A stretch of DNA of 63,517 bases, filler included, from Atractiella rhizophila (taxonomy: Eukaryota): the NCBI GenBank assembly GCA_021432655.1. It is 6 parts of 6 records of this genome, joined end to end, with 100 filler letters (N's around TTAATTAATTAA, not from the genome) between each part and the next. Parts side by side here need not be neighbours in the genome. Positions count along the whole stretch, not along the records: positions 1 to 25,299 come from MU271419.1; positions 25,400 to 36,903 come from MU271420.1; positions 37,004 to 53,411 come from MU271425.1; 3 more parts are not named here. One strand, 5' to 3'. Positions within the stretch are counted from its first letter, which is position 1; every line of letters starts with the position of its first letter. The notes below the pieces were generated by a model. That model was not told the origin of the DNA. It saw only the letters and a program-made list of their open reading frames with translations, and ran no database searches. Positions 1,113-47,762 of the stretch are shown piece after piece. Position numbers and translations under genes: made by a program.

Positions 1113-1137
1113 NNNNNNNNNNNNNNNNNNNNNNNNN

Positions 1138-2470
1138 GCTTGGAGGGGACGAGGTCGCCTCAGAGGTTTGACTCGTAGAGCTTTGAGAGAAAGTCTTGCA
1201 GAAGTATCGATGGTATATCTTAAAACCATGGCAGATAGTCATGCACCAGTACTGATGACCCCTCCTTCCTTACCTGCGTGACAAGCCCAACTGTTTTTTT
1301 ACCGCCGGGAAGAAAAGAAAGTAGACCTATACGATAATTCGGTCCATAAGATTTTGACAGTCCTTCTAACTTTCCCTACATGGACACCCGGTGTAATCTC
1401 ACTACTCTATAGGAGGAACCCACTATTCGCGCCGTATGGCGAACGGGGTTAGGCCAGAGTACCAACCACCCTCTCGGTGCTTCTTGGACTAATCCTGGAA
1501 ATTACAAGATAAATTGAACTTAATTTTTTCTTTATGTTTGCACTTTAGTATACGCTCTGGTTTTGGGTGGTCGCCCCCTACCCCTTGAACTTCTTCAGCA
1601 GTGTCTGCATAAAGTGGGAGAGAAAACGCCCCCTTAACGAGCGCAAACACCGATCGGTGAAGAGATGAAGTCAGTGAATAGTGCGGACCCTGTCTTGAGT
1701 GAAGGACGCGGAATCTCTGCCGACAACCTGAATACAGCTATGGGGTCGAAAGCTACAGTTCCTACCTTCGCTGTTCCTCCCCTAGTATGGGGACTTCTTT
1801 CTACTACTTAGCATACTTACACAATGAAACGGACTTTCGTGTTACGAATGGGAGGGTGTAGGTCGATGGTTCCGTGCAGGTAGGGAACCGGTAAGTTGAG
1901 GTCGTCCTCCTCTAAAGTTATATCGAAGCTCACGCCCAACTCTCGCTCGTAGCAGGGTTCCGATTGCCAGTTCAGTAGTTACTTTGTATACTGTGCTGAC
2001 CAATCTAGCTGGGTGTCAGCATGGAACGAAGGTTCAGGGTAGGGTAGGGAGTCGGCGATCCTGTCTCAAGTAGGCAAACTCGACAAGAAGTGCTCCTTCC
2101 TAACCTCATCGGTAAAAGATGTTTGCTGCTTCTGGAGTCGACGGGATATACTATACTATACTACCATGTCCAAGCAGGGTGCCAGACGCCAGTCAGCCGC
2201 TTTGCTCTCTCGCCTAACGACGCCCTAAATAAATAGGTCACAAACCCAAACCTAGAAAATATACAACGTCGCTGTAAAAAATTGAGGCTGGCGGACGTTG
2301 AAAACTCATAGACTAGACACCGTGAGAGACGTAGTTATGGTACCGCGGTAAGGAGTTGGCAGGGGAGATAAGTGAGATTAGGAGTTGGTTGGATAGGGAG
2401 GGTCGGTAAGCACGTTGGAGTCGGAGTCTACTACGGTTACGTACGTATAGGGTTGGTCGTCAAGATGGGG
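1138..2470. other. Mirrored block A (reversed, not complemented)
   Basis: 2447-2470 (atagggttggtcgtcaagatgggg) is the exact reversal of 1089-1112 (ggggtagaactgctggttgggata). Its plain complement encodes SNPQPTYPSQPFVQPQPQMMPMHAYPNQQFYP, which continues into the NUFIP1 gene. Confidence 0.9.
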
Positions 2471-3431
2471 GTAGGGATCAAAGATTGCGGTTTGGAGAAG
2501 AAAGTAACGTCTGGAGGTTACACCAAGCAACCCTAGACTGTCAAGGCTCAAGATGTAGCGCCGCGTAGTCACATCCTGCAGCTGAGAACATAAACTATGA
2601 TAAAAGAACAACGCGTTCAAATGTGTCCAAGAATGTGGGAGCAGGAAAGACTCGTAAATGATACTTTCTGTCCAACCCTCAAGTTTCAGCAATGTCACGG
2701 TATCCAAGTGAACCAAGGCCAAAAAAAGTTTTTCTTCAGTGGCGCTGGACGGACAGACAAGATCAACGGAAATAATGGGTGATTGAAAATGTAGAGCATA
2801 TTTGCCAAGTAAAGGAGATCAATCATTCTTTGGTTCGAATCCAAGAATCCAATGGGAAGCAAAGTGAAATGTAACCGTTTTAACAGGTCCAACCGCAATA
2901 TATCCTAGGTCGAAGTATAGCGTCCGAATGAGGCACCCATTCTTCAGCATAAGCATATCGCTCTAGTAGATGTGGAATAAAGCCTGACAGTTCAATTCAG
3001 TCTGAGGAGAGTGTGAGGAAGCCATCTGCGCAAGCGAGTAGGGTCAAAGTTTCAGCCGTATTGAGCAGATTCTTACTGCAATTTTTACTGCAATTTCTTG
3101 AAGAGTTAACTCAGGGGCGTGACTCATCTAAAGAGATATCTAAAAGGGCAGGCAGTTCCTTCTGAGTTCAAACGTTCAGTGTTCACAGTCAGGCCAGTCA
3201 CTAGTCAGGTGTCTTGATTATGGATCAGGGTGACTCATGTGACTCACTTCATTCCCTTCCAAGTTCGTCTTCAAAACCCGCGTTTCCATTTCTTCATCTC
3301 GATCTCCCAAAATTCAGCGCCTATCCCTCTCACCGCAAACGCGATTGTACTTGTATAGAGGCTGCTTTCGGCTTACACAAGAGAGATTTCAGAGTATTCA
3401 GAGTTTTAAGAGATTCAAGAGTTCTAGCAAG

Positions 3432-6400
3432 ATGGCGAATGTTGGTCCTGGCAAGGAAAAGGAGGAGCTCGTGAAGATGGAAAACGTGGGTTCTTCTGTC
3501 TGCCTCCTTGGTAGGATTGCGGGGCTAGATAGATTGGAAAGTGGCTAGTGTCACGGCTTGAACAATCTGCTTTAAATCGAGCATACCAACATCTTGAACT
3601 ATAAAAGTGTTCAACATGGATGTAGAAGCTAGCATTTGCAAAAGACGTCGTTCTGCTCTCATCTTTCTATTTCTTTTCGTAAGGAATGCCACACAATAAT
3701 TAAGGTGTTCTGTAGCTGATATTTATTTCTGACCAGACCACCAGACGAGACTACCTGATATCAATAGAGAAAGCCGTACAGAAGCGCTGGAAGGAAGAAA
3801 AAGTATTTGAAAGCGAGATTCCGACAGATGAAGCGGAGTATGAGAAGAAGGACAAATGGTTTGGGACATGTGCGTTTATTTTTCTCATTTTCATCGATGG
3901 AGCTGATGGATGCTGATATTAGTTCCTTGTAAGCTGCATCGTGTATTCAGTTAGTGAATCTCTGACGCTCTGCAGTTCCATACATGAATGGTTCCCTGCA
4001 TCTCGGACACTCGTTTTCAATTACGAAAATCGAGTTCACAGCTGGATACCAAAGGATGTTGGGCAAAAGGGTGCTTTTCCCCTTCGGATTCCACTGCACC
4101 GGTATGCCAATCAAAGTATGTTGTTCCTGCACTTGCTGTGCAGGATCTCATCGTCGCCACAGGCTGCAGCCGACAAAATCGTCAGAGAGATCGAGCTTTT
4201 TGGAGAGGACTTTTCAGGGTACGATGCTGAAGTTAAGGCGGACAAAGCGGTAGCGTCTTCCTCGAAAGCCAAATCAACCGATCAGAGCAAATCGAAGAAA
4301 GGGAAAGTAGCAGCAAAGAATACAGGTCTTCAGTACCAATTTCAGATCATGGAAAGCATCGGAGTGCCAAGAGAAGAGATCAAGAAGTTCGCTGATGCCA
4401 AATATTGGCTTTCTTACTTCCCTAACGTTGCTATTGTAAGATGTTTGTTTATTTCATTTACAAGATGACTGAGTGTAGGAGAGTAGGAAGACCTCACCAA
4501 CTTTGGAGCACGGATTGATTGGCGCCGTTCTTTCCTTACCACAGATATAAACCCTTGGTATGATTCCTTCGTCCGATGGCAAATGAACCGTCTACGAGAG
4601 CTCAACTATGTCAAATACGGGAAACGGAATACCATTTACTCGGAGAAGGACGGACAACCTTGTATGGACCACGATCGATCCAGTGGCGAGGGAGTTGGGC
4701 CACAAGAGTACACAGGTATCAAGATGGAGGTAGTGGAATGGGGAGAGAGGGCGGAGGAGATCAAGAAGATTGTTGAAGGAAAGAAAGTGTTCTTCATCGC
4801 CGCTACCCTCCGACCCGAAACAATGTACGCGCAGCCCGTCGTTTGTGTCCTTCAATAGAACGCGCTGACAACGAATAGGTACGGTCAAACAAACTGTTTC
4901 GTCTCTTCGACTATCAAGTACGGTATCTTCGCCTCGGACAAACCGAACGAGTATTATCTGTGCACTCATCGAGCAGCCCGGAACATGTCGTACCAAGATA
5001 TCCTGAAGGAGAACGGAAAAAGAGATCTACTTGTTGAGGTGAAAGGAGAGAGTCTCATTGGCACGAAGATCAAAGCTCCATTGTCTGTCCATCAGCAAGT
5101 CCACATTCTTCCTATGGAAACAGTCCTGGCAACTAAAGTAAGTGTGCTCCTTACGTCCCAGATTGATACTGACCTTGCGAGTCAGGGCACCGGAGTTGTC
5201 ACCTGCGTGCCTTCCGATTCACCAGACGATTGGATTACCCTGGCTGAGCTGAAAAAGAAAGCACCTTTCTACAAAATCGATGCTCTCTGGGCATCCGCTG
5301 AACCGATTTCCGTCCTCTCTACTCCTTCCTACGGCGACATGTCTGCAAAAACCCTTTGTGAACAACTCAAGATCAACTCTCCGAAAGACTCCAAACAACT
5401 TCTAGAAGCAAAGGAGAAGGCATATCAAGAAGGTTTCTACAAGGGCACCATGACCATTGGACCATACAAGGGGCAGCCTGTCCAAGATGCGAAGGAGAAG
5501 GTGAAGAAGGACCTGCTCGACGCTGGGGACGCATTCCTCTACTTCGAACCTGAAAGTCTTGTCATGTCGCGAAGTGCGGATGAGTGCGTAGTCGCGCTTT
5601 GCGATCAGTGGTATCTCGATTATGGGCAAGACGGCTGGCTGCAGAAAGCGGAGAAGTGCGTTGCTCCTCTCATCTTCTACGATTGCTTTATGAGAAAATA
5701 GGCTCGTGAATCGCATGGAGCTCTACAACCCTGAGACACGTCATGCCTTCAATCATGTCCTTGGCTGGCTTCATGAATGGGCGTGCTCGCGAACATACGG
5801 ACTGGGAACAAGGATCCCTTGGGATCCCCAATACCTCGTTGAGGGTCTCAGCGATTCCACGATCTATATGGCTTACTACACCATCTGCCACCTTCTGCAC
5901 GGTGAGAGCTTCCCCGTTTGCTTCTTCTGTGAAGAGGCTCATGAGGAAGCGATGGACAGGATACCCTCTCCACGCTGCGACTGAAGGACCGCTGGGCATC
6001 AAGCCTGAAGAAATGACGGACGAGATTTGGGACTATCTATACAGCGGCAAACCATTCCCTGAAAATCCGTCACCAGCCTCGCTCTCGAAGGAGAAAGCGG
6101 ACATACTCAAACGACACTTTGAATATTGGTACCCTATGACGATCCGATCTTCAGGTAAAGACCTTATCGGAAACCACCTTACATTCTGCATCTACGTTCA
6201 CTGCGCACTCTTCGACGAAAAACATTGGCCCCTTTCCATGCGAGCAAACGGTCATCTTATGATGAATGGAGCGAAAATGAGCAAGTCGAGTGGCAACTTC
6301 GCCACTCTTAAAGAATGCACGGTCAAGTACGGTGCTGACGCGACAAGGATGGCCCTGGCTGACTCTGGTGACGGAATGGATGACGCCAATTTTGAAGAGC

Positions 6401-7513
6401 AAGGAGCCAATGCTGGGATCTTGAGGCTATTTGTGCTCCAAGAGTGGTTCAAGGTCGGTCTTCCGCCCACTCAGGTAATACAGGCTAATATGAAGACATA
6501 GGAGATGATGACGACGAAGGATCAACTTCGCACTGGGCCGAAAGACAAATTTTATGACAAAGTGTTTGAGAGCGAGATCAACTCAGCAATTATTAAAGCT
6601 AAGGAAGCTTACGAAGTGTTCGTTCTCTCCTCTGTTGATCCTGATCCGAGACTAATATGTCTACAATGCAGGAGTTCGTTCAAAGACGCCCTGAAATACG
6701 GCTTCTTCGAGCTACAACTCGCACGAGACTGGTATCGCGAAGCCTGCGCACACGATGGTGGCATGCACGTCGACCTAGTTATGCTCTTCATCCGTGTCCA
6801 GACACTACTTATGGTTCCCATTATGCCACACATCACGGAGCACATCTGGAGCGACGTCCTTGGCGAGAAGACGTCTGTCCAGTTTGCCCGATATCCTGAA
6901 CCGACCTCCGCCGTCGACCGGATCATTCTAGACCAAGCAACGTATGTACGGGACGTAATCAAGAACGCGAGAGATGGGGAGAACACTTTCATTCGGCGCA
7001 TGAGCAAGAACAAAGATAAGAGCCAGTCTTATGCGGCGAACAAGAAAAAGGGAGTCAAGATCTACACTTCAAGCAAGTTTCCAGAATGGCAGGAGAAGTG
7101 TGTCGCGATTGTGAAAGAGTCTTACTCTACTGAAGAGGCAAAGGTGAATGATGAGCTGGTCAAGAATAAACTAGCCAGTTCAGGGATGCTAAAGGACAAG
7201 AGAGCGGTATGTGGCTTCCTCATCGCCTTTCCCACTTTCCTTGACGAGAACGAAACAGATGCCATTCATCCAAGTATTCAAACGGCGAATCACACAGTTT
7301 GGCGCAGACACTGCTTTCAACCGTACACTCCTTTTCGAAGAGCGAACTCTGCTAGAGTCTCTTGTGCCATACCTGAAGCGTGCGCTCGCTTTCGACGAGG
7401 TGGTCATCGTTAGTGTCGAGGATGGCCAGAAGGATGGAGAAAAGGACACAGAAAAGACGGCACGAGAGGCTAGCGAACCAGCAAACCCAACTTTTGTGTT
7501 TTATAATTTGTAA
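3432..7513 (+). CDS. CDC60: Cytosolic leucyl-tRNA synthetase (multi-exon)
   Basis: [11 protein letters not shown] (HIGH motif), GFHCTGMPI, editing-domain AATLRPETM and [20 protein letters not shown]. Canonical introns link the ORF pieces. Confidence 0.97.
3528..3698 (+). ncRNA. Candidate intronic structured RNA (H/ACA snoRNA-like)
   Basis: Lies in 251-nt intron 1 (3486-3736). Hairpins agattg/caatct with inner gtggc/gtcac, and ttgaac/gttcaa. ACA at about 3691-3695. Confidence 0.3.
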
Positions 7514-7815
7514 ATGCTTTGTCTAGACTGTTCTACTGTCAAGACGTAGCACTAAAGCACCTTTCAACCCATTTTGACGATTTTGACTCCATTTTATCTG
7601 CAGTCTTTCTTGCTTGTTTGGGTTGAGCACACATTCCGCACCAAAACATATCAGCTATATCAATCAGAGATGCTGAGGGCAAATCGACCCTCTGATTCAA
7701 GTCTCAGCTCGAAGGGTGGCGCCGTTCATAACAACGTGATGCAAGGTGTTTGAAGGCGGTCGGATTCACGTGAGCTTATTTCTTCTTTCAGATTGACAAC
7801 ATTGTCCTTTGTAAG

Positions 7816-8893
7816 ATGTTAGGCAAGTCTATGGTTTCTTGATGCGTATTCTTTGCTGACAATTCAGCAGTTGTTGGCCTAACAGGAGGAATTGCATCCG
7901 GTCAGTTCTTCCTCCCTCCTCCTTCTGTGTGATTATCATGTTACAATTCACCTCAGTTCACCTTGAGCATACACTGCAGTGAGCATTCGCTGCACTGAGA
8001 AGTCGCATCAGCGAAGCTGTATGCCCTACTCTTCTGACAAGTACTATTAGCTTGTAACGTCTGTTTCTTCAAAACGTCGACATGTTTGCGGGATTGGGAG
8101 CAGGACGCCTGCAAGTTCTGCAATACCCATGTTTTCGGTGGATATAAAATAAAAACATGGATATAAAACCATCAATTGTCTTAGCTAATACTATATGGCA
8201 GGCAAATCCTCAGTGTCCTACATCCTCCACTCACACGACATTCCAATAATCGACCTTGATGTTCTCGCCCGCGAAGCTGTTCTCCCCAACACATCAGCAT
8301 ATCGACGTATCGTCAAGCACTTTGGGTCCCCTGTAGTCGACTCCACGACCACTCCGCCATCCCTCAACCGAGAAGCTTTGGGAGCCATCGTCTTCAAGGA
8401 TGAGAAGGAACGAAAGATTCTGAACCGTATCGTCCATCCCGCCGTTCGACGACTTCTGTTTTGGAAAATTATCAAGCACTGGATCACCGGGTCCAAGATC
8501 GTCGTTGTCGATGCTCCTTTGCTCATCGAAGCAGGCCTCTGGCGTCTCTGCGGCTCCATTGTCCTAGTGTATACCACTCCTCCTCTCCAACTCTCTCGGT
8601 TACTCTCTCGAAATCCGCACCTATCCGAGCAGCAAGCGAAGGAAAGGATAGCCGCGCAGATGCCTTTAGACGAAAAGAGGAAATGGGCGGATTGGACAGT
8701 GGAGAATGTGGGGACGAGAGAAGAGCTGGAGGAACAGGTGAAGGATGTTTTAGAGCGGCTGAGTGCTCACATTGGAGGCGTTGGATGGGCTTTGTGTTGG
8801 CTAATACCGCCAGTCGGTGTGGTTTGGGCGTTGGTCAAGGTCGGGTATAGGTTAGGGTGGAAGAGGGTGGGAAGGAAGAAGAAAGTCGAGTGA
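7816..8893 (+). CDS. CAB5: Dephospho-CoA kinase (CoaE/DCAKD) with C-terminal hydrophobic tail
   Basis: Spliced N-terminus MLVVGLTGGIASGKSSVS (GC-AG intron 7823-7870, intron 7901-8201). Also LNREALGAIVF, IVHPAV, DAPLLIE, RIAAQMPL. Confidence 0.95.
7925..8041 (+). ncRNA. Candidate intronic box C/D snoRNA
   Basis: C-like GTGATTA at 7929, internal CTGA at 7995, terminal CTGA at 8034, all inside an oversized 301-nt intron. Confidence 0.4.
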
Positions 8894-9047
8894 TGAATAA
8901 ACCTCTCTGTTGCTGAGTGTTAGTATTACCTTCTTGAAATGGCTCGTCGTGTGAATCTTCCTTATTAATCGTTTGACAGCAAGACATTACATTTACTTTG
9001 TTGAATCTACATCACAAATACAAAATAAACTTGGCCTATATTCCAAA

Positions 9048-10762: not shown

Positions 10763-10946
10763 GACGCTTTGGTGGTGTGATACAGGATCTAATATTACTG
10801 TTGTGACTCTCTCCCCTCACAAGTTCCGACCACCTAGATAAGGTTACGTCGTGGTCAACTTTGCGTAACCGATTCCCACAACCACCAAAACTGCTTCTGG
10901 CTTATCTTTGTCATTTTTCTTCCCTTTCACAGTCAAAATTAGCCAA

Positions 10947-11335
10947 ATGACATCTTATTCTTTCCCCCTTGCCACCGCACACACTGTATCTCATATTACA
11001 GTGCCTCGAAGCGCAAAAAATGCAGGCAAGATATCCGCTGGTTTGTCTTTCCGTGACACCATCTTCCAGTGCTGACGTTCTTCTGTTGGTGCGATAAAGC
11101 GGTGACCTGCGGCGTCGTGGGGATCTTCTGGACGGCGTGTATAATCTTCTGGCTCATCAAGCGGACGGGACGGCCAGTTGTGAACCCTTTGACGATGGAG
11201 GAGGAGCAAGTGGATCAACAAGCTTTGGAGGAGAATGGAAAGGTTGGTGTGGGTGGAGTTAAGACGAAGGATTATGGGGAGGTGAAGGAGGTGCAGAGGA
11301 AAGGGACGAGGAGTGAGAAGGAGAAGTTGTCATAA
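10947..11335 (+). CDS. Small single-pass membrane protein, unknown function
   Basis: ATG at 10947, plausible intron about 11042-11099, hydrophobic VTCGVVGIFWTACIIFWLI, charged tail. Confidence 0.45.
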
Positions 11336-15839: not shown

Positions 15840-17479
15840 ATGGCTGGCTCGCCACTCGTCTGCACTTTTGGGATGTTCATCCTCGACCAATTCCGCTACG
15901 AGGACATTTGTCCTTCAGATGCCAGCGTAAATGATCGCATAACAGAGCAGATCGGAGGAGGAGGAACATAGTGTGTATTTATATCCCTGGTGGCTCGAAA
16001 CAGAAGCTGATCAACACAATTGTGAGATAAGCAACTGTCGGAGCTCGANNNNNNNNNNNNNNNNNNNNNNNNNTAAACCAGCTACCCTTCTTCTTCTACT
16101 ACCGCTTCTTCCTATTCCTCCCACTCTTAGTCCACGACAACTTCAACCTCTACAACCCTGTCCTCCCACACCCTAAACTACGCTTGCCCTTTAACTACTT
16201 CTTCTTGAACAACACCCTAGGACGCTTCCTCGATATTAACGAAAACTATTACATTTGTTTAAATAAGTAAATAAGAACATTATGGTCGGGGACAAGAGTT
16301 GTTCTCATGACGTTTACGAAAGTATAGATTTAGATAAGAGACAAGAGTAAATTTTCACACAAGAGTCGCTCAAGATGGCTGTGGAGTAAAGGAGGTTGGA
16401 GGCAAGACGTCTAGCTCCGAGGTGCCAGGGGGTAACGAGTCGAGGAGGAAGGAGGGCTCTATCTCGCCCGTCTGGTATAACGACTTACTACTTTGACCGC
16501 GAGTGCGAGGGACGTGCATGCCGTAGTTTCTATAGGTTAAGCAAGGGGGGAAGATTAACGAAACGCTTGCGTCGGTAATTAGGAGGGATGAGTGGGCAGT
16601 GCCACCTACAGTCAGAGGTAGTGTCTCTCTCGTCCCAGTTCCTTCTTACTCCCTCCCTTGCTTGCTCCTTTGGCAACGGACGAGGTCAGTGCAGATGTTA
16701 GAAGAGGAAGAGGAGCCGTCCCCTGTTTCTCCAGGTTATTCCGCGTTAGGTTCGGAAAAAAAGCATAGATGAAGAGTGCTTTCGGGGTACGAGGGGTGTC
16801 GCATGCTGTTGTAGAGGTGGTGGAGAGCATCAGAGGCAAGGGTTAGGGTACAAGTGTTTAGCAAGCCGGTGGAGAAGTTAGTGGAGAGACTTCACTCTGC
16901 TTCTTCCTTTGCCGTCGACCGACCTTCCTTTCTTCTTTAAACGACGGAGGTTTACCAACCCTCTCTTTTGTCGCTGGAAGAAATATGGCAGAACCTCGCT
17001 CCGATTGAGAAGTCCACATGTTGTTAGACCCTAGCCAAGTATGTGATCCTGTCCCAGGGTTAAACCCATGAAGCATCTCCTTCTTAGTGTTTACCTTCTT
17101 TAGAGCCTCTACTACCACTCGCGGCGCAACCCCTTGTCTATTTTACATTCTTGGACCCATCCCTTCCATTCCCACCTCTTTCCCTCTCATCCAGTTCCCC
17201 TCTCTCTGCAGCAGCTCCTCACTCTATAACTTTTGGAGCTCTGGGCAGCTCCGCCATCTATAAGTCACGGACGAGCACCAGAAACTTAGTCAATTACGAG
17301 CAGGCTTCACTACCCTGACCCTCCTTCCTTACTGTGGAACCATCAAAGCGCTCAGCATAGAAGGGCCATCACGGTACGAAGCCGCGGCATCCTTAGCTCG
17401 AAAAGAACGGGGTGAGTATCACGAAGGTCAGCACTGGTGCCAGTTGCTAGTACTCATCGAACCTCCCCGAGTCTTTGTA
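15840..17479 (+). CDS. PfkB/ribokinase-family protein, Mak32-like; exons after 16048 lie in the mirrored block and read 17479 to 16374 without complementing
   Basis: Normal part: MAGSPLVCTFGMFILDQF..QIGGGGT..TVGAR. Reversed part: MFLSPSKLLMIVDRG..VYEPIPDCCTPEEL..FSPNHLEA..VVVRCGEHG..IVDVTGAGNGFL|GGL..SVSASFIIQQYGLP..RRLEEMRCR*. Confidence 0.9.
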
Positions 17480-17521
17480 AGCTCGAGGCTGTCAACGAAT
17501 AGAGTGTAACACAACTAGTCG
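16074..17521. other. Mirrored block B (reversed, not complemented)
   Basis: 17480-17521 is the reversal of 16006-16048 (1-nt indel). Flipping the block in place restores two genes in frame. Confidence 0.97.
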
Positions 17522-18172
17522 CTAATCCAAAACATCCCTTGAATCCACCAATGAATAAATCGCTAGCAATGACCCTATGACAGGGCACTCTCGGCGCGAA
17601 GGGATTCTTCCTCAACGCCTGTCCGACCGCCTGAGCACTCCCACGTCCGTTCTTTCCCTGTTTCATGGATATGTACGATGCGAAGAGACCGTATGTAGAG
17701 ACGCGACCGACGGGGATGGAACAGGTGAGGGAATAGACGAGCAGGGAGAATGAAGAATGAGTAGAGGAAGGCGGTGGCGGATATGGAATGGGAGGAGCGG
17801 TGAGGGAACAGTCAATGACGGATGAGTGAGGGAGGACAGGGTACATGGGATCTGATTCGGACTTCAAGATAAGAGCTTTCTGTTTCTTTCGCCTGTTGCC
17901 TGAGGCTAAACGATTCCTTTAATTTGGACGACAACCATTACCACAAGCAGGGAAAACGCACTATTAGAGATGGAAATGTTAACCTCCTCCTCCTCTAAAG
18001 TTGAAGCATTGCGCTTCTTCCTATTTTTCGGCACTTCTTCACATCTTTCGTCTTCCAAATTCCTTCCCTCTGCCTCCACCTCTTGCATAACACCATCCTC
18101 ATAGAGATCGGGATTGGTAAGCTTCGAAACAATCTGAAACTGCATGTTGACGGGATAAATATTTCGACCCAA
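17522..18172 (-). CDS. MGT1: O6-methylguanine-DNA methyltransferase (DNA_binding_1 domain); last ~54 codons lie in the mirrored block at 16074-16237
   Basis: IPVGRVSTYG..SAQAVGQALRKNPFAPRVPCHRVIAS with the active-site PCHR. Continues in frame as ..GL-DLVDGKK..KLEMLGQEGVGFDANGKL..LWDPAKEL*. Start codon uncertain. Confidence 0.9.
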
Positions 18173-33772: not shown

Positions 33773-33797
33773 NNNNNNNNNNNNNNNNNNNNNNNNN

Positions 33798-36903: not shown

Positions 36904-37471
36904 NNNNNNNNNNNNNNNNNNNNNNNNNNNNNNNNNNNNNNNNNNNNTTAATTAATTAANNNNNNNNNNNNNNNNNNNNNNNNNNNNNNNNNNNNNNNNN
37001 NNNCCTACCACGACGAGCAGCCCTTTTTGACGATGGACGGCGCTCTCGAATTAACTTCAGCCCATAACGATGACTCCGTCCTCCAGCACTGTGCCTAAGC
37101 AGAAGAAGATCCTCATGTCTGTGGACTAAGAGCTATTGCAACAGGTTTTGTAAAAGACAGAGAATTTCCTTCTGCTTTGGTACAGTATCTGGAGGTGTAC
37201 AGGATTGGGATCTTTATCTGGTATGGTCTTCCTCCGGTTTTTTTCTCTCTGCTGAAGATTTCTTGTGTTCGGTAGCTCTCATGCTCTCAATCGTCTCCGC
37301 CATAACTTTAACTTTCCCCTTGCCATCTATCATCTTACCACTGCCCGTCTTTCGTAGCTTCACAACGATGCCTCTCCACCTCTCCCGCTCCCTTTCCGCA
37401 GGAGCAGAATCTTCCGAGGTGTGGATGTGGATGGACGAAGTGCTGGTCTATTGGGCAAGTTCTCTCCCGTC

Positions 37472-40406
37472 TCAGAACTTGTTGAGGGCTACGACATGTC
37501 GACGGCCGCCTGGTGCCGAGAGATGGATCACAGAGATAAACCTCAACGGTAAGCTAAGTGCCTTCTCATAACATCGTCTCAGAAGTAGTTGCCTTTAGAA
37601 GATCCAATGAATCTGGCATCCAAGTACTCTTGAATCTCATTCACCTCTCAAACATCACCTCTGGCACTATGAAGGACAGCTTATATCCCATCATTTCCTT
37701 TGTAGATATTTGAAGGGATGCTTGACTGATTTAATGGAGATGCAGAGTTATCATTGATATAAGCTGTAAACTGCCAAAGGACATTAGCATTAAAACAGTA
37801 CAACCCAATGATTGAGTACAGATTGAACTACGGTGAAGGAGGCTAGTGGTTGTCAAAATGTACAAGTTACAATTTTTATATGTTTGGTGGAGGATTGTTG
37901 ACGATGGTAAATGAGGACCGGGAACTTGTGCGATATATAAGTTATAAGGTTGTTTTCATCTGTAAATTCAAAGTCTAATCATAACCTTCTACTTCCTGGA
38001 ATGCTTCATCCTTCAGGCCTTCCATTTCCATCCAGGAACTTATTAATTCATTCTGTTGTCGTTCATGATTCATCCTGCCATCTCCCTTGAGTGGCAATTC
38101 TAGTACATTCTTTTTTGCCACCAGTTCTCGCGTTTTTTCTTTTCTCACTTTTCTTGAACATTGTAGAACAAGGTATCCACAAGTATATAAAGCCTGAAAA
38201 GCAAAATAATTATTCCATTCTAAAATAACAATAGGTTATGGGCCCAACAAGCTCATAGACAAAACAGCACCCTACCAGCCGAAGCATAAACTAGACAACG
38301 CACCAATGTATCTAATCCCCTACTAGCAGCTTTTTACACATAACCAATCCAAACTCGTGCTTCAAAAAGATGTCCAGCAGTTTAGGCTGGCTTGAAGAGT
38401 ATAAGATTTCTTCTAGGCAAAGATTCTGATCCACAAGAAAGATGTGGTGAGTACCAGCCTCAATAACCTTCTTCCGAATGCTCGTGATAGTAAGTCAGCT
38501 GGCTGAGAGCGATTCTTAATTTTGACAAGGAGGTTCTTGCATAAGAAGATATCGGGAAGGACACACAGTACAGTTGTAAGAGAAGAAGCTGATCCACGAA
38601 ATGGCTTGCCAGCTGCACTGTGCCAGTTTTTATTATCATATCATAAATGGGAGCTGCTGATACTTTGGAATAAGGCATCCCTTCTCAATGTGACCCTTTT
38701 GAAGCTCAAATATGGCTCAGCACTTGTTCTAAAGATCAGGATTCTTCTTGAACTTGTCTTCAACTTTCATAAGCCGTTCCAAGCTTTCTTCAACTGAATA
38801 ATACTCAGCAACCCCACCTTGCAAGTCTGCCTTCTTCTTTAAGATTGCCTCTCAAAATGCCATAACAAAATCTGCTTGTGCTGGATTTGTGTGAGGAATT
38901 GTTTCAAAAACAGGTATTTCCAGATGAGCTAGATCCTGGCCAATCCAGAGTTCGGGCACATAGAGAACGACACTGTTCCTATGTTGACAGCAGAGGTTAA
39001 CACATGCCTTCCTTTGAAATCGACTCCAAGTAGCCATGCATGTTGAGCAAAATCTTGAAGTCCACCACCTCAAGCAGTGAGTTCCTAACAAGGACTAACT
39101 AGCTAACTCTCTTGTCAACTCACTTTCTTAACGGTCGACATTCAATGCGGTTATGTGACAAGGTCGAAATGGTGTACTGGCGTGCTGCTGAGTTTGACGG
39201 CTTTCGTGGAAGTAGGTCGTCACTACCCACTTCCTACACTACGTTCAAGTCAGGGAGATGAGAACCGTCGATTCGATATCACCTGATGGTTCCCAGATCT
39301 GTCGCCTTGACCGTAGAGTCCTTTGCTGCCAAATCCTCAGCTTTAGGTACTGCACTTCAGCGCGCGAAACGCATTCATTACTCTTATTCTAGACAGCTGC
39401 CATTTCCATTGATCGCAAACTGCTGGTCATAGCCTTCGATACCTGTATATGAGGCGTTCATCAACTTCCACTATTCTTGTTGACTCCATCATCTGTTTCT
39501 CTCTCCTCACTCTCATATTACGAGGTCGTCAATAATACCGTCCAAAATAGTTTGATATAGTGTCAAGACATGATTAAGGGTCGTGTCATGCGCCATACAT
39601 ACTTTAATATCCCTAACGACAAACAAAACTCGGGTTCTAGATTCCCCTGAGGACAATGCATACTTCAATGGACAATCTGAGGTATGGAACGTGCACAGGA
39701 GCAGAACAATCTGCTGCGATGAGACAGTTGCAGATGTATTGTCTTTATGGGGGTGTGACAATGGAGTAGCGCGATGCCTGTAGAACCCCCTTTGCTCATG
39801 CCTGAGCTTTCTTATTTTCTGCTCCATACATCAGCCAACAGCCCTGTCAAGAGGGAGAGGGGAAGGAGCAAATTTACCTCGCAGAATGTCGGCGGTGCGA
39901 CGAACCACGTCGTCCGGAGGGAGATGCTCCGTATTCCTTGGATCAAGCAAAAATTGTTCGAACTGATCCCAAGTAAAAAAGTGCTCTCGGCCCTCGATAT
40001 CAACATAAATCCCCCGTTCGTCGACACGCAGATTGCGTGCAACTGGAGTGTCGCTGGATGATTGTGGAGGCAGCCGTAGCAGTGATCGGATTTCCATCGC
40101 TCCCGTCTCCCAAATTCTTTGTTCGGCTTTGCTGCCTCATCGCAAATCGATAATTGCATCCCGTTGTTTCGAAATCTCAACGTAAGAGACTCCTGCAGAT
40201 GCTCGCTAGAGGTTGATATCGGGAATGGCCAATGGAAGGGAGAGCAAGTAGGCCATGGCAAAGCGGAGTCGGGACTACAAAACGAACGAGTTATATTAAC
40301 GCCTAAGCAAAAGAAGGCACTTAGCTTACCGTTGAGGTTTATCTCTGTGATCCATCTCTCGGCACCAGGCGGCCGTCGACATGTCGTAGCCCTCAACAAG
40401 TTCTGA
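37472..40406. repeat. 95-bp inverted repeat pair (37472-37566 and 40312-40406)
   Basis: tcagaacttg..gtgccttct versus agaaggcac..caagttctga (true reverse complement). Confidence 0.9.
38340..38770 (-). pseudogene. Degenerate gene or TE relic, paralogous to mirrored 44330-44762
   Basis: Aligns to the plain complement of 44330-44762. Contains stops and frameshifts. Confidence 0.7.
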
Positions 40407-40410
40407 AACT

Positions 40411-40825
40411 GCACTCACGTCTGAATACGATGGATAATGGTGGAGCAATGGGGAATTGTATGTTTTGAGATATGTGAGGTGCGTATTTTGTCCTCCGCTT
40501 TTTAATATTTGCTCATTCTCAATATATTAGACGGCATTGATCCCATTCACGCTGCTTACGTCTAAAATACGATGAATAATGGCGAAGCAATGGGGGATTG
40601 CAATTTTTTGATATTTATGAGGTGTGCATTTTCCTCCGCGTTTTTGATATTAGGTCATTCTTACTACGCATTATACATCGTTGTAGCTGGCTCTCAGGTC
40701 TTGCATTCGCACTCACTCCTGAAATGTGATGGATAATGGTGAAGTAATAGCAAATTGTATTTTTGATATATCAAGGTGAGCATTGTTTGCTCCGCTTTTT
40801 TTAACGTTCACTCATCGCTCATCGT
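40411..40825 (+). repeat. Diverged tandem repeat, three ~145-bp units
   Basis: Units at about 40411, 40553 and 40708 share gcactcac..gatg(g/a)ataatgg..ttgat..aggtg..ctccgc. Mirrored copies at about 41689-41940. Confidence 0.75.
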
Positions 40826-42220
40826 TATCACGTGTTATACAGGGCAACAACACCATCACATACGTTACGTTCAAGCTACTTAACAGGAAAACACATTGGG
40901 TACTGATGTCGGAAGGAGCGATTACATTTCAAGTTTCCACATACCTATATCCTTTTTTTTGCTTCAGAGACAAACACATTCCATTTCATAGACACTGGAT
41001 CAGTCTAAATTGTATTCAAGATGAATCATTAATCATTACTAGATTTTGCATTCGAGAATATTCGAGTTCGAGGTCGACTACTTTCGTGTTTGCAGCCCGA
41101 TGTGACGCAAATCTCCGCGAAATTGAGTGCAAAACCCTCGGGGCGACCATTTTGCCCCGTCCTGCACCATAGGCCATATAATTCTGATCTATTGCAATAG
41201 ATGCTTCGGATCTCGAGCTTCTGTTGATGTTCTCGTTGTGAGAGGGCATGCCTGGTTCAGGGGCTCGTTCGTCATGTTGGTTGTTATGGATTGTTGTGGA
41301 TGGAATTGGATTTATTGTGCTTAATGTTGGGAAAGGAAAATCCTGGCATGACATGCAGAGCTTTGCTTTAGGAACCAAGGAACACAGACACAGCAAGGTG
41401 AGGGTAAGAAGAATTAGTTTTCGATATCGCTAGCTAATCGATCGCATCGTGTGTCTTCTTCCTTCCGTGGTAACTGTAGCTAGACGAAATCAAACCCATA
41501 CTTCAAGTCACTCATTATACAGATCAAAGTGGAACAGATCGAACAATCGAAGGAGTTTAAACCATGGAGGCTCACATATTACTACTACAACGACTGAAAA
41601 CGGGATGGCGACTNNNNNNNNNNNNNNNNNNNNNNNNNCATTACTCACTGAACTTCATACCCAAACTAAAGCAGATCGATGTCATAAGTTTTCGCCTCCT
41701 GTTTTATGCGTGGAGTGTATAGAGTTTTGTATGTTAAGGGGTAACGAGGTGGTAATAGGTAGCATAAGTCTGCACTCACGTCATTCACTACCCTGACTCC
41801 CGATCTATAATGATGTATATTACACATTATTCTAACTCGCTTGTAGTTTTTTTTCGCTTCCTTTTTTATGTGTGGGATATATACAGTTTGTATACTAAGG
41901 TATAATGAAACGGTAATAGGTAGCATAGAGTCCGCACTCATGTAGTTTACGCTCCAGACTCTCGATCGATAGTGCTACATATTCTTAATAATCGTAACTC
42001 CCCTATAATTGTTTCGTCTCGTAGTTGAGTGTAATATAAATGTAACAGACTGAGGCATTGTCACGTAAGTCAGGAGAACGTTGACGTCGACATTAACTAG
42101 TTTATGTTCGACTCTTAAACGAAAACAAAATATTATGAACAACGCTAGAAATATTTTTTAAAGTTTTCACACTTTTAGTGTTTTCTATAGGTAAAGGTAG
42201 ACTGATGAGTGATTCACTTG

Positions 42221-42907
42221 ATCCCGAAACGTGGCAGGGCAGGCAGGTAAAAAAACGGACTCTGCCGCTGCCCTGCCCACTGGGGGCAGGGCAGTGGGCG
42301 TGGCAGTGACTTGTGCCCCTGACAGACTGCCACTGCCCTGACACTGCCGTTCTTCTCCCGACGTCTGCCTGCCCAAACTGCCACTTATGCCCACAAGTTG
42401 TTTTACAAGGAAATAAGACAGGCCGTGGTGGCCTTATAGAGTAAGTACGGTACAAGATCAGCGATTGATGATTACGGCCGTTCGGAGCCGGACAAACCGA
42501 CCCGCCTTTCCACGAAACCAACTCGGCCGATACCGGGGATTCGTCGGCCGGGTGTACTCCAATCCCAACGTGACTGGGCCTTCAGGGAAAGACCGGCAAA
42601 ACCTGGTACGTTTCCTTACAAACGAGACGACGTTTGTTCTTTTATACTTTAATGCTTTTCGAACGTCGTCTTGTTCGTTTTTTGGCCATTTTGTCCAAAT
42701 TTTGAATTTTAAGTATATATTGTGGGCAACAAGGGGCAGACTGGGCAGTACCTTCGCGTACTCTCCCGACTGCCTGCCCATCGTGGGCAGGCAAATATGG
42801 CAGGCAGCAGTTTTTAAGTTTCAACACTGCTACTACCCTGCCCACCGGTTTTTACGGCAGGCAGGGCCTGGGCAGTGGGCAGAACTGCCACTGCCACGTT
42901 TCGGGAT
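42221..42907. mobile_element. hAT-family MITE (in mirrored block)
   Basis: 17-bp perfect TIR (atcccgaaacgtggcag / ctgccacgtttcgggat) and 8-bp TSD ttcacttg at 42213-42220 and 42908-42915. The un-mirrored TIR TAGGGCTTTGCACCGTC equals the end of the hAT element at 52407. Confidence 0.93.
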
Positions 42908-44764
42908 TTCACTTGGTGATGAAAGAGAAGGGACGAAGTTATACATTGGAAAGAAAACAGTTTTGGGTCAGGTAGAAAAGGAGATGGGTACAGTAACGGT
43001 ATTTTTGAGCGTATAACTAGGTTGCAGGGCGTGAAACGGTAGGAACTATGGGTACTTTTTGAAGAAATGGTGTAAGAGTAGATACGAGGTGAAGGGGTTG
43101 TATAAGCATGTCTCATCCTGTAACACATTCAACCAGAAGCCGTCACCCATACCTTGGAACCTGGTTACGTCTTTCAACTTTAGTGTCTACAGCACTAACA
43201 AACATAAGAAGACTGCTATAGGTAGGAAAACGAAGAATGTAGCTGGTGTTCAGAAATGTCGAGGTTCCAACGGGAGGAAACAACCGAAGTACATACAGTG
43301 AAAGTGACCACCTCCCACACAGCAAACATCAAAGGTCTTACCAAACTAACGACGAGTTGTGTAACAATCATTCAAGAAAAAGAACAGTTATTTTAACAAG
43401 TCTGAGTATGAGAGGAGACCCATGAGAGACTTACACTGATCGTTGGAGGAAGAGCTAACGTTATTTGGTAAAAGTCGTGGTTTGGCAGCGATTACTTAAA
43501 CAATCAGTCTTGTGGCAAAAGACGTAACATTATGTGTCCCAAGTTCTATTCTACCCCCAATAATATCAAGAGTCGTTTGTTGAAGTCGACGAAGAGGCAG
43601 TTCTTCATCGCAACTTGACTTCAACCGTCCGGTGTTCAAAGATTTTCCGTCGTCTCATGTAAACTTAACATGAGAAGAGGACTATTAGACGTTTACTACA
43701 CAGACAACGACTTCATTTCCAGACACTGTAAGCTCTAACTCTCTGTAAACACCCGTCTCCTTGACCGTCACCTAGACAAAGGTGTAGTTATAAATACCTT
43801 CTACCCCTGACCAAACTAAAACATTTCAAGGCTTATCTGCCATCGTCTCCACTGAACTATAGATCAGGTTTTCAAGAACTAAAACTACTCCCGCAAAACC
43901 TCCTCTACCGTTCGTATCGTCACTGTAGTAGGAGTGATAGGTTAACACAACGATACACAGAACGTTCGCTCTGCTTGACTAGCGTCTTGCAACATTTACT
44001 CACAAAAGCTCAAAGATATTGTCAAATTATTCTTATATAAGGATACAACTCTTCTGACCCGTTCTCTTCTGGATGACGGAATCTTTGTGGAGGTAAAGTT
44101 GTAGTCTCATATGTCCTTCGAGTAGTAAGTATTGTTGGCAAGGTAAGTATTGTCGTTATTGTTAATGAAGCTGTACAAGTTATAGTATACCGAACTCTCA
44201 AACCTCCTCGAGGAAAACGAAGCGAAGTATCACTAGATCCAGTTGAGGACATTTAGATTTGAGTACCTTATAGTTATTTATATGATGAGGGTCATCGTTC
44301 ATGTCTTTTGTATGACAAAAAAGTATGAATTGGTTAGATTTGAACACGAAGCTTTTCTACAGGTCGTCAAATCTGACCGAACTTCTCATATTCTAAAGAA
44401 GGTCCGTTTATAAGGCTAGGTGTTCTTTCTACACCACCCATGGTCGGACTTATTGGAAGAAGGTTTTACGAGTACTACCACTCAGTCGACCGACCTCACC
44501 AAGAATTAAAACTGTTCCTCGAAAGAGCACATTCTTCTATAGCCCTTCCTGTGAGTCTTATCGACATTCTCTTCTTCGACTAGGTGTTTTATCGAGCGGT
44601 CGACGTAATACGGTCAAAAGTAATAAACTACAACATTTAACCTCAACGACTACGAAACCTTATTCCGAAGGGAAGTGTTATACTGGGAAAACTTCGAGCT
44701 TACATCACGTCCTGACCAAGGTTTCTAGTCCTAAGAAGAACTTGAACAGAAGTTGAAAGTATAT

Positions 44765-45510
44765 GGGAGGGCATACCGTCAACTTCGTGAGTAACAACCC
44801 GGACAGAGACGATGGAGGGTAAAAGTCAAAAACGACAGGAGAAGGGAAAGCACTTATCGCGGCAGAGATCACGAGGGTTGAAGAGGAAGGAGACGGAGAG
44901 GAGAAGTTAGTCATCACGACTATCGAGCACGCTGCTGTTCCAGCCAAACAAGTTTACATGAGACTTTATACGCCTACACTTGGACAAGGTACTAAAACTG
45001 TTGGTACACTATTCCTCTTTATACTTCAGAAGTAGAACTCACATAGGGGGAATTCCGTTCAAGGAGAATTTGGAGAGACTTACACCTCTACACGAGTTGG
45101 TACGACTTAGGAAGGAGTCGTATACTTACTATGTTGGCTGTGGAACGGTGGTCCTAAGGATTCTAGGGGAAACGGAGAAAGCGGTGTGTGTTAACGAAGA
45201 TGTAGAGACGACGGCAGAAACGAGGACGGTTCACCTAGTCGAACGGAAGCTACTAACAGTCGAGCTATGTGTAGACACGGAACCGTAGGAAACGTAGGTT
45301 AAACAGCTCAAGAAAGACCAAGTATAACCACAGAAAGAGTGGTAGGAAAGTAAAGAAATAGAGGTCTCATCCAGAAAAGAAGAAACTAGGTCATTGTATC
45401 AGATTGTCTAGCTAGAAGACATCCTGGTGATACTCCACAACAAACATGCGGTGGGTCAATAAGCTAAACTCACCGAGTTAGAACTTATGTAACTTCCTGA
45501 GCCTATACCA
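44765..45510. mobile_element. Degenerate Ty1/Copia gag (reads right-to-left without complementing)
   Basis: IEPLKSNNWVAYK..LLDYVTG..DAKAQMCIELTI..AKTAAEM*KQL..MVEHISTFREV*EEL..LSKSWNRF..LLIEEERQR..ECFNCHTGG (truncated zinc knuckle). Stops and a frameshift present. Confidence 0.85.
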
Positions 45511-47762
45511 ACACACCCACAAATCCCCTGACCTCCATGTTACCCACTGTTAGTAGTGTTCACTGGTACTACTTCATAAACTCCGTCATGAGGTGAATCA
45601 CGATAAGGAGTCCGAGTTTCTTCTGTGGCTTCTGGTGGATTTCCTGTAGTGGGTAGCATCTCGTAGTAGGATTCAAATGACCTTCCCTCTCTCGAGGATA
45701 AACCGATTTTCCCTTCCCTCATGTTTACATATGGCTGTTCCTTCATTTTTCAACCAGTATAGCTGTATACTCTTCATTTCCGTGTCTCCTGTTCTGGACC
45801 GTGACATCGTGTAGTTTGTCCTCAAGATAACCGGCTGTTAGGTTCGTCTACATTACCTCGTACGGGAGAGGACGGGTTGTACAGTCCGTACGTTTAGAAG
45901 TTGTTTCAAAAGTTGGTAAGTCCTGACGGCGACGTGTGTTGAAAGCTACCTCCACAGATCAAAGTGGAACAGATCGAACAATCGAAGGAGTTTAAACCAT
46001 GGAGGCTCACATATTACTACTACAACGACTGAAAACGGGATGGCGACTATGTACGAAGAGATTAAGAAGTTGAATGTAAGATATCAAATGGAATGAATGG
46101 GTAGGTATGGTTAAGAGAAGTCGTTGAGACGTGTCTGAGCCAGTTACATTGAGATGAGATGAATCTGAGGCTTGGGAGGTGAGATGAGTTGGTAGAGAGC
46201 CAATTGAAGAATGAGGGAAGGAGGGAGGGACTTCTTTATGAAGCGATGGAGAGATGGTGAGATTACTGGATGGGCCCATTGCACTTCGCCATGTGACGAT
46301 TGAAGTTTTCGATGGTATAATACCTCTTCCCGCCTATCACACCACCGAGTCAGCATTTCATTTTCATTTCGTTAAATGAGAAAAGGAGGCAAGGAGGGGA
46401 AGATGACGCACAGAAAGGACAATAATACTCATTTTCTTGCGGCTTCGATAGGTTAACGAAGAATTTCTGTCTGCAACCCGCGCGACCGCAGTCAGCAATG
46501 CAATGAAAAGCCACGAAAGAAAGGTAATTGGGAGAAACACTCATGTAGCCCCAATCCAAAAGACGCCATTACTATTACCGTGGTCTGCTTGCTTCTTGCT
46601 AAACGCTTCCAGAGGACTGAGAGGACTCGAAACTTGAAGCTTCGTTGACTGGACTGACTTCTGACTTCTTCAGGACTGCAGCCTTTTTAAACGAACCTCG
46701 TGCCGAACCCGACAGTTTGGATATTCCCGTCTTATCGCAACCAAGCCAGTGATCCCGGCCGTTTAGATCTATCGTTTTTGTCAGACCTGCAGGCGGTGAC
46801 GCGCTGGACGATGTGACGGTTGGGCGGTTGGGCACAAAGAAGAAGGATCGCTTAGGATCGCTGCCCCGAAGTTGGAATACGAACCAGAGATCGGGATCGG
46901 ATGCCGAGGTTGGCTCCTTCAACCCACTACCATTCTCCTTTCTCCAGAAATGACCTCACTATTCTTCCCGAGCCTACTTTTGGCCTTCCCGGTCTTGCAC
47001 CAGCATCAGAGGCGAGTGTCGCGATGTTTTTCATTCTCTGTTGGACGGGTAAGGACTTCCGATCTGTCAGCTACTCTTTCCTCTTCTGTCAATCCTCGTG
47101 CCATCACGTCCTACTTCCACAACAACGATCTCTGGAAGGCTGTCTCAATTCCTTATTGGAGGGAGCCTGATACTGTGGGAAAGAAAGGCTCGCCTCCAAC
47201 TGATGCTGGACGTTTCTGGGTCTGCGGCTTGAGTCCAATGTCAGCGCTGAGAAGGTGCAAAAAGGTCATCAAATGTGCTTGCCGAATGTGATGAAAGCGG
47301 ACGGGGGACTTAGACGCAATTTTGGAATGTTGAGGAGGCGAACACACTGTTGAATGCAATCGAAGGCTTGAAAAGAGTGTAGCGACGTCAACTCAACTGT
47401 CGAGGGACCTCGATCTGTTCTAAACGACGCTTTCCTGGAGATCCGTAATAAATGTCAACTTTGGCAAAGCTTTTTGAATCCTGAATCATGTGACATGTTG
47501 CATGTTACATGACCGTGTCGACAACCTCTCGATACAAAGCCAGGAATACAACATGCAACATTCCTGTCCAAGAATAAGCAAAAGCGACCCTGAATCTGAT
47601 TCTGAATCGAATGCAAGAGCTGTGGGGACCAGTCGAGTAATTGTGGGAGGTTGTTATCTCCTGTACAGTATATCTGTTTGTTAATGCGTAGTCACGGTCA
47701 TGATCGTGCGAAAAGCTGCGACGCGAAGTATTGTTACAAAAATACATTTATGTCGAACCCAG

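Follow-up and report, generated by a model that had tools for sequence, protein, structure and literature searches.

Three blocks of the Atractiella rhizophila window (the whole stretch of 63,517 nucleotides that was analysed, taken from assembly GCA_021432655.1) were found to be reversed without being complemented. It is very likely, with a probability of about 0.97, that the three blocks are an assembly-finishing artefact, namely a strand-handling error in the sequence text. The blocks amount to 7098 nt, or about 7 kb of the 63.5-kb window (11%). An earlier note on this DNA had described three mirrored blocks of about 7 kb, each adjoining a run of 25 Ns, and this was confirmed by the positions of the N runs and by k-mer statistics. 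The window has 15 N runs, and a mirrored block lies directly 3′ of three of the four runs of 25 N. The placeholders and blocks are listed below, with the basis of each in brackets.

1113..1137, no strand: 25-N placeholder 5′ of block 1 (N-run listing)
1138..2472, no strand: block 1, plain reversal (junction contigs, overlap copy, LLR -12.8)
16049..16073, no strand: 25-N placeholder 5′ of block 2 (N-run listing)
16074..17521, no strand: block 2, plain reversal (junction contigs, overlap copy)
33773..33797, no strand: fourth 25-N run, with native text on both sides (N-run listing, k-mer likelihood)
41614..41638, no strand: 25-N placeholder 5′ of block 3, gap still open (N-run listing; no overlap)
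41639..45953, no strand: block 3, plain reversal, flush with the right flank (mirror-only matches, 141-nt junction alignment, LLR -54.9)

Block 1 had been placed at 1138-2470; its start stands, but its end is 2472, since the contigs described below resume at 2473. All three blocks are flush with the right flank.

The mirrored state is visible in the composition of the text. An order-4 Markov log-likelihood (deposited minus reversed) was calculated for 500-nt bins, with training outside the blocks and each tested bin held out. Outside the blocks, 109 of 110 bins are positive, the single exception being -0.6. Of the 15 bins that have their centre in a block, thirteen score below -3; the remaining two are -1.3 and +0.7, the latter consisting partly of native DNA and N. 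A second Markov test, with the entire deposited window as training text, used 300-nt windows (n = 633). Here 85 are negative, and 65 of them fall in three runs (1101-2700, 15901-17400, and 41501-45900), while the remaining 20 are scattered over 12 runs of one to three each. The change points of this second test are 1083/2453, 16028/17524, and 41642/45951, and the LLR values listed for blocks 1 and 3 come from its training. The GATC:CTAG counts are 209:89 in native DNA versus 12:23 in the blocks, and the TA:AT counts are 2223:3488 versus 504:345. The k-mer likelihood, GATC/CTAG, and TA/AT all invert within the blocks.

Third-party contig assemblies from four public runs (X1, X2, X3, and X5) were compared with positions 1-19000, a range that covers blocks 1 and 2. 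X1 and X2 are DNA-like and represent one sample, and X1, X2, and X5 together represent two samples. X5 and X3 are RNA-like because they have GT..AG joints of 46-62 nt. All four runs have zero contig depth within the blocks (bins 1269-1902 and 16485-17118). Since zero coverage alone proves nothing, the loose ends of the contigs were used as evidence instead. At 1112, 2473, 16048, and 17522, the contigs cease to follow the deposited text, and 31-242 further letters hang over. Of the 30 letters compared at each of these four junctions, 120 in all, 119 agree with the block when it is reversed. The loose end 3′ of 1112 is the reversal of 2446 down to 2417 (30/30), and that 5′ of 2473 is the reversal of 1167 down to 1138 (29/30). 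The loose end 3′ of 16048 is the reversal of 17479 down to 17450 (30/30), and that 5′ of 17522, found in X1, X2, and the RNA-like X5, is the reversal of 16103 down to 16074 (30/30). X1 and X2 carry un-mirrored text at all four junctions and X5 at 17522 alone; X3 has no loose end at the junctions. Read directly, as reverse complement, or as complement, the junction strings match nothing in the window even with up to four mismatches allowed. According to the earlier note, its artefact reading would fail if reads or PCR covered the blocks and junctions as deposited. The public-read assemblies ignore the deposited junctions and give the reversed text at all four junctions of blocks 1 and 2.

In native DNA, the runs and the window are about 0.2-1% apart, so the runs may come from another haplotype or strain than the assembled one. 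Further loose ends were seen in native DNA at 2817 and 2848. They have no window match in any orientation and were attributed to a difference between strains or haplotypes that has nothing to do with the blocks.

Reversal in place also revealed how the blocks fit their flanks. Corrected block 1 opens with a 24-26-nt copy of 1087-1112 (window positions 2472 down to 2447) and then bridges to 2473. Corrected block 2 opens with a 42-43-nt copy of 16006-16048, with one 1-nt indel, followed by a flush bridge to 17522. The overlap copies of both blocks contain an indel or mismatch of the type usual for long-read consensus. Since corrected blocks 1 and 2 start with a 24-43-nt copy of the left-flank tail, those fills truly close their gaps. 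The corrected local sequence is 1..1112 + reverse(1138..2446) + 2473.. for block 1 and ..16048 + reverse(16074..17479) + 17522.. for block 2. For block 3, no overlap was found between the reversed block start and 41613. The right flank opens with 95 nt (45954-46048) that are identical to the tail of the left piece (41519..41613, + strand). Once the block is reversed in place, 41473-41613 gives an unbroken alignment of 141 nt at 99.3% across the junction of block 3 and the right flank; the support for this junction is thus a second copy within the window. Blocks 1 and 2 close their gaps, and block 3 joins the right flank alone. A repeat copy of the left-flank tail was also looked for 3′ of the fourth 25-N gap (33773-33797), and none was found there.

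Two genes are cut by block 2. Their parts are as follows.

15840..15968, + strand: native first exon (43 codons) of a PfkB/ribokinase-like kinase (100% identical to P0001 over 43 aa)
about 16377-17479: remainder of the PfkB gene, mirrored (P0001 residues 46-370 align to the corrected locus only)
17522..17918, - strand: native part of an MGMT-family (PF01035) gene (Pfam match)
16074-16234: last 54 codons of the MGMT-family gene, mirrored (corrected ORF)
17457..17521, - strand: mirror text translated in the public gene model P0002 as its last 22 residues (P0002 alignment)

P0001, a PfkB protein of 370 aa whose name gives Atractiella rhizophila as its species, carries a precomputed PF00294 match. 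Its residues 1-370 align to the corrected locus (E 3e-159), but to the text as deposited only residues 1-43 do; beyond residue 43, no match was found in the six frames of the deposited text. Tiles of 15 aa from P0001 are colinear on the corrected locus and identical at 334 of 360 residues, versus 163 of 360 on the deposited text. In the latter case, 43 identities come from three native-exon tiles (15, 15, and 13 of 15); the range in the 21 remaining tiles is 4-7 of 15. The earlier note had expected a PfkB hit from reversed 16074-17521, and this is what was obtained. The gene restored in block 2 probably belongs to the PfkB carbohydrate kinase family (PF00294), judging from its full-length similarity to the PF00294-bearing P0001. 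Since the PfkB alignment and the contig junctions both came out in favour of reversed text, a strand-handling error, not biology, is indicated; the artefact reading of the earlier note is thereby supported.

The match of the native MGMT part to Pfam PF01035 spans positions 2-67 of 81 and breaks off at the block boundary. The ORF has 186 codons after correction versus 154 as deposited. On a 119-position profile, which I built from 119 homologues, the coverage is 6-110 in the corrected text versus 6-76 in the deposited text. In-place reversal thus gives the MGMT gene back its C-terminus, with a domain that is complete past the PCHRV motif. P0002 is 100% identical to the deposited text over its residues 63-211. 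No longer public MGMT model with the true C-terminus was found among 239 candidates. The claim that annotation misses or truncates every gene in the blocks can be upheld for one public model, P0002, and only for that one.

Block 1 appears to hold most of another gene.

1138..2114, + strand after correction: body of a putative TPMT-like SAM methyltransferase gene, mirrored, with about six short introns (spliced model)

The last 11 or so codons of this gene lie in native 2473-2507. Among 1113 spliced models on corrected block 1, with score-tuned intron choice, the best reached 37.1 bits (E 1e-13, Z=1). The profile is my own, made from 33 PF05724 matches in 33 bacterial genomes, and is not the Pfam model or its cut-off; the E. 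coli K-12 genome contributed no match to it. As controls, the best scores were 1.2 bits on the deposited + strand (3285 models) and -0.8 bits on the corrected - strand (113 models), and the deposited - strand gave none. A six-frame per-exon search with the same profile was weak, with a best E of 0.0067 and four colinear fragments on the corrected + strand. Clear genes had been announced for all blocks when read backwards. This was borne out for blocks 1 and 2; in block 3, reversal gives no better ORFs than the deposited text (longest 132 aa reversed). The statement that the blocks lack meaningful six-frame ORFs needs a correction, since block 3 as deposited has a 199-aa chance ORF at 42417-43013. 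Rfam and tRNA scans of the window gave no matches.

Matches within the window point in the same direction. In block 3, 44319-44762 is the complement of 38331-38771 (87.6%, 445 nt, E 2e-154). When reversed, 41684-41783 equals 40408-40507 at 99%, 41640-41684 equals 41473-41517 at 100%, and 17480-17521 equals 16006-16048 at 97.7%. In a self-BLAST on both strands, no native-orientation match linked any block to the rest of the window. The four junction strings are found by reversal only, and the block 3 repeats by reversal or complement only. The statement that the blocks match other parts only as plain reversal or complement therefore holds for blocks 2 and 3, but block 1 has no long match, just its 24-26-nt mirrored overlap with 1087-1112.

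Could the blocks be ordinary inversions (reverse complement), misassembled or real, whose orientation was misjudged? Inversions are a common orientation error in assemblies, and, as here, they leave a misoriented segment between correct flanks and genes broken at the edges. However, reads, relatives, and proteins still align to an inverted segment, on its other strand, whereas the blocks align on no strand and depart from the strand symmetry that the k-mers of this genome show. The repeats that pair with the reversed text at E 2e-154 were not matched to the blocks in the both-strand self-BLAST, and P0001 finds nothing past residue 43 in the six deposited frames. Ordinary inversion is refuted by the junction letters, which equal the reversal and whose reverse complement matches nowhere in the window; this explanation is highly improbable.

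That the DNA of the sequenced strain is truly mirrored is scarcely conceivable. The deposited record itself speaks for it, and the runs that were compared, being about 0.2-1% different, may not be from the assembled strain. However, no replication or recombination chemistry is known to yield reversed, uncomplemented DNA, and the block starts coincide exactly with N placeholders. Contigs of three of the four runs, including the RNA-like X5, have un-mirrored junction text. Three genes would be destroyed, one of which is expressed (X5 depth over 17119-18386). A mirrored duplicate of the left-flank tail makes sense only as an assembly overlap.

Returning to the assembly-finishing artefact, the following series of events very likely explains the blocks. 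A long-read-derived sequence would have extended the right-hand contig leftwards into the scaffold gap. The fill entered the record with half a reverse-complement operation, that is, reversed without complement or complemented without reversal, which give the same text. It was set between the 25-N placeholder and the right-hand contig. The closure of gaps 1 and 2 went unnoticed by the program, and the Ns and the duplicated overlap were retained. The step probably occurred in an automatic, PBJelly-like gap filler or extender using error-prone long reads. Fills of 1.3-4.3 kb exceed what short-read gap closers give, and PBJelly presumably leaves 25 N at unclosed gaps. The blocks resemble a PBJelly-type one-sided extension in the 25-N placeholder, the kb-scale fill flush with one contig, and the short unrecognised overlap with the other contig with indel-type errors. 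They differ from such output in that a correct fill has the scaffold orientation, whereas here it is reversed without complement. PBJelly by name would be about an even guess. PMC6240028 gives 25 as the default minimum gap of PBJelly. Counting against the gap-fill account, one of the four 25-N gaps has no mirrored text 3′ of it; this gap may have been spared if no strand flip was required for its fill or if a right-side fill was absent.

It is rather unlikely that the artefact arose at another stage, such as patching by hand, a scaffolder, a script for formatting or submission, or processing that the record underwent later. In favour of this, the window has non-standard 44N+TTAATTAATTAA+44N linkers, a sign of further processing of the pieces. 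A published account of a gap-filler bug that reverses without complementing was not found in the literature, as judged mostly from paper listings, and the portion of 10.1101/237586 available holds nothing relevant to reversal without complement. Searches found no paper on this Atractiella rhizophila assembly and none pairing Atractiella with PBJelly. On the other side, each block fills precisely the space from a 25-N run to where the right contig begins, and a short overlap with the left contig, errors included, is the anatomy of one-sided gap extension. Since P0002 was already built on mirrored text, the error is older than the annotation.

No organism should carry this DNA; it has no importance as biology, and its relevance is data hygiene. 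Neither aligners nor gene finders can read these 7 kb or so (11% of the window). The public record breaks at least three genes, namely those of the PfkB kinase, the MGMT-family protein, and the putative TPMT-like methyltransferase, all three of which come back on reversal in place, and one public protein model (P0002) already ends in 22 mirror-translated residues. Plainly reversed sequences are otherwise familiar from decoy databases, where they serve as negative controls with base composition kept and homology destroyed. Here, by contrast, the reversal is unintended, lies inside a public genome record, and has been translated into a public model. It is possible, though doubtful, that an undocumented reverse-without-complement pipeline fault is systematic and has mirrored much of the right-flank extensions in this and similarly finished public assemblies; the basis for this in the window is the mirrored text at three of four 25-N gaps. 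If so, genes would be silently deleted or corrupted and protein databases seeded with residues of mirror DNA, as in P0002. A cheap k-mer test, or the GATC/CTAG ratio after 25-N runs, would detect such blocks genome-wide and in other assemblies.

As for the content of block 3, it consists of repeats and degenerate ORFs. In a Pfam scan, nine native ORFs around the block had no transposon domain and one HSP20, and four more ORFs near it were blank. Since transposon domains are lacking in these native ORFs, the likeness of reversed block 3 to copia gag, seen by eye, stays an impression.

The earlier note proposed, from the sequence alone, that three blocks of the window, each right after a run of 25 N, are reversed but not complemented through a gap-filling error. 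It was found that k-mer statistics, mirror-only matches and contig letters at the junctions of blocks 1 and 2 all agree that the mirrored blocks are real, and they are not a biological feature.

Mirrored blocks, with the 25-N run before each
1138-2472, block 1, after 1113-1137
16074-17521, block 2, after 16049-16073
41639-45953, block 3, after 41614-41638

Orientation was first scored with an order-4 Markov model. Its training data were both strands of the native DNA (the window minus the three blocks), and each 500-nt bin was left out of training when it was scored. The deposited reading, as in the public record, was favoured in 109 of 110 bins outside the blocks (the one exception scored -0.6), and the reversed reading in 13 of the 15 block bins, with values of -3 to -22. 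When a second model was trained blindly on the entire deposited window, 85 of 633 300-nt windows were negative. Sixty-five of these formed three runs (1101-2700, 15901-17400 and 41501-45900), whose change points lie about 30 nt or less from the block coordinates proposed earlier. The score per kilobase was -9.6, -9.7 and -12.7 in the blocks versus +23 to +30 in native stretches. The GATC:CTAG ratio, suggested previously as a test, does discriminate (209:89 in native DNA versus 12:23 in the blocks), and the TA:AT ratio is likewise inverted in the blocks. Two homology-independent statistics thus single out the same three blocks. The DNA from 33798 onward, behind the fourth 25-N run, has the native orientation.

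When the reversed window was searched by BLAST against the native one, matches appeared that the native self-BLAST lacks on both strands.

Mirror-only matches within the window
44319-44762, complement of 38331-38771, 87.6 % of 445 nt, E 2e-154
41684-41783, reversed equals 40408-40507, 99 %
41640-41684, reversed equals 41473-41517, 100 %
42221-42391, mirror orientation only, to 52407-52577, 78 %
17480-17521, reversed equals 16006-16048, 97.7 %

With native DNA 2600-12500 as the query, 8 public sequencing runs were listed, and contigs of X1 and X2 (one sample), X5 and X3, all third-party, were aligned to 1-19000 at 90 % likeness. These runs differ from the window by about 0.2-1 % in native DNA, and the strain may not be the assembled one. 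The contigs agree with the window to 1112 and 16048, extend 114 and 119-242 letters beyond, and agree again from 2473 and 17522, preceded by 31 and 45-165 unfitted letters. The 30 letters behind 1112 are the plain reversal of 2446->2417 (30/30), and those before 2473 of 1167->1138 (29/30). Likewise, the 30 letters behind 16048 are the plain reversal of 17479->17450 (30/30), and those before 17522 of 16103->16074 (30/30). None of the four strings matched direct, reverse-complement or complement text anywhere in the window with up to 4 mismatches. That the contigs leave the deposited text at four junctions and continue with reversed block text supports the artefact proposed in the earlier note. 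X5 and X3 have 15 listed spliced joints (3484-11099 and 17898-17962; GT..AG or CT..AC), mostly of 46-62 nt with one of 966 nt at 9575-10542, and no spliced joints were shown for X1 and X2; X5 and X3 therefore behave as RNA. The RNA-like X5 departs from the deposited text at 17522 in this way too, so un-mirrored text is present in the transcript. The joints also locate introns in the tRNA-synthetase, CoaE and MGMT genes. In native DNA, X1 and X2 contigs depart from the window at 2817 and 2848, with loose-end letters that match the window in no orientation, and nearby, at 2950-3012, they hold 21 other letters between the joint sides. These departures are probably an indel or haplotype difference.

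The reads fix the local sequences at two blocks: the true sequence is 1..1112 + reverse(1138..2446) + 2473.. at block 1 and ..16048 + reverse(16074..17479) + 17522.. at block 2. The leftovers 2447-2472 and 17480-17521 are mirrored copies of the final 24-26 nt and 42-43 nt of the left flanks, with one mismatch or 1-nt indel each. Because they duplicate the left-flank ends, fills 1 and 2 reached and overlapped the left contig; these gaps are truly closed, yet the Ns and the overlap were retained. Block 3 directly adjoins its right flank, and once it is reversed in place, the tail of the left piece (41473-41613) aligns as a single 141-nt stretch (99.3 %) over that junction. At its start, reversed block 3 shares no overlap with the left flank ending at 41613, so the gap before it remains open. 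Repeats are plentiful around block 3: units of about 150-160 nt occur in tandem, and 41519-41613 is identical to 45954-46048 over 95 nt. Such a tandem repeat flanks the third gap at 40410-40814 and, mirrored, at 41689-42014. In the left piece, about 965 nt separate two landmarks that adjoin in the corrected fill; haplotypes or reads may differ here in copy number. From this anatomy, all three blocks appear to extend the right-hand contig leftwards.

The native exon 15840-15968 (43 aa) as the query retrieved one protein, P0001 ('Ribokinase-like protein [Atractiella rhizophila]', 370 aa, carrying PF00294). In tblastn, P0001 matched deposited 15500-18700 with residues 1-43 only, versus residues 1-370 on the corrected locus, with the block reversed in place (E 3e-159 and 3e-48), and the expected PfkB match of block 2 was thereby obtained. 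As 24 tiles of 15 aa, P0001 was identical and colinear at 334/360 residues on corrected text versus 163/360 on deposited text, where the three native-exon tiles gave 15, 15 and 13 of 15 and the other 21 tiles 4-7 of 15.

On the minus strand, the PF01035 match of the ORF 17523-17918 spans positions 2-67 of 81 and breaks off at the block 2 boundary. Correction lengthens this MGMT-family ORF from 154 to 186 codons, covering positions 6-110 versus 6-76 of a 119-position profile built here from 119 homologues. A search for a public MGMT model with the longer, correct C-terminus had no match. The public protein P0002 (211 aa, also named Atractiella rhizophila) is 100 % identical to deposited text over residues 63-211.

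17457-17918, minus strand, P0002 on deposited text

Its 22 C-terminal residues are the translation of mirror text 17457-17521. Thus, public annotation was made on the flawed sequence, and the error has entered a protein database. P0001 and P0002 are listed on contigs of different length (104,882 and 68,085); P0001 may therefore represent another haplotype or a further copy of the locus.

In block 1, single exons matched weakly, colinear on the corrected plus strand, to a TPMT profile built here from 33 bacterial PF05724 matches. On that strand 1113 spliced models were scored, and the best reached 37.1 bits, versus 1.2 bits on the deposited plus strand (3285 models), -0.8 bits on the corrected minus strand (113 models) and no model on the deposited minus strand. 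Intron choice was guided by score, so the predicted gene is probably, but not definitely, TPMT-like. The claim that the blocks encode genes when reversed holds for blocks 1 and 2 (a probable TPMT-like gene, PfkB and MGMT); reversed block 3 has only ORFs of up to 132 aa, which by eye I take to resemble copia gag. The claim that deposited blocks lack meaningful ORFs needs qualification, as block 3 contains a 199-aa chance ORF.

No polymerase or recombinase is known to produce reversed-uncomplemented sequence. The blocks begin at N placeholders and duplicate contig tails, and the normal text is found in reads and RNA of this species. An artefact introduced by gap-filling or finishing software is, in my view, the explanation, with a probability of roughly 97 %. 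Reversing the plus strand and complementing the minus strand give identical text; one half or the other of a reverse-complement step was omitted. PBJelly leaves unclosed gaps at 25 N. The chances that a PBJelly-type long-read filler specifically was responsible are about even; an excerpt of PMC6240028 gives 25 as PBJelly's default minimum gap. No published account of such a reverse-without-complement fault was found in the literature. The results flag a corrupted public record and offer a simple screen for the same fault.

The window comprises 63,517 bases with about 47 % G+C. Its 15 N runs are the four 25-N runs, a single run of 820 N and five 44-N pairs flanking the 12-mer TTAATTAATTAA. The spacers with this 12-mer have stop codons in all six frames; they are an artificial linker between the separate pieces that make up the window, which is not a single contig.

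100-nt spacers (44 N + TTAATTAATTAA + 44 N)
25300-25399
36904-37003
53412-53511
55196-55295
62101-62200

The DNA is eukaryotic, judging by its short, split ORFs, GT..AG joints and Pfam matches (NUDE_C, CoaE, DEAD helicase and class-I tRNA synthetase across three ORFs). Among named proteins, those of the basidiomycete Atractiella rhizophila are the closest. Native DNA also holds a small heat-shock ORF.

49298-49855, plus strand, HSP20/alpha-crystallin ORF, E 8e-15

One inter-linker piece carries the same 2.8 kb at both ends (25400-28232 and 34078-36903; 94.6 %, direct). Haplotype overlap, tandem duplication and a collapsed circle are possible explanations. This piece also contains the fourth 25-N run (33773-33797), with both flanks native.
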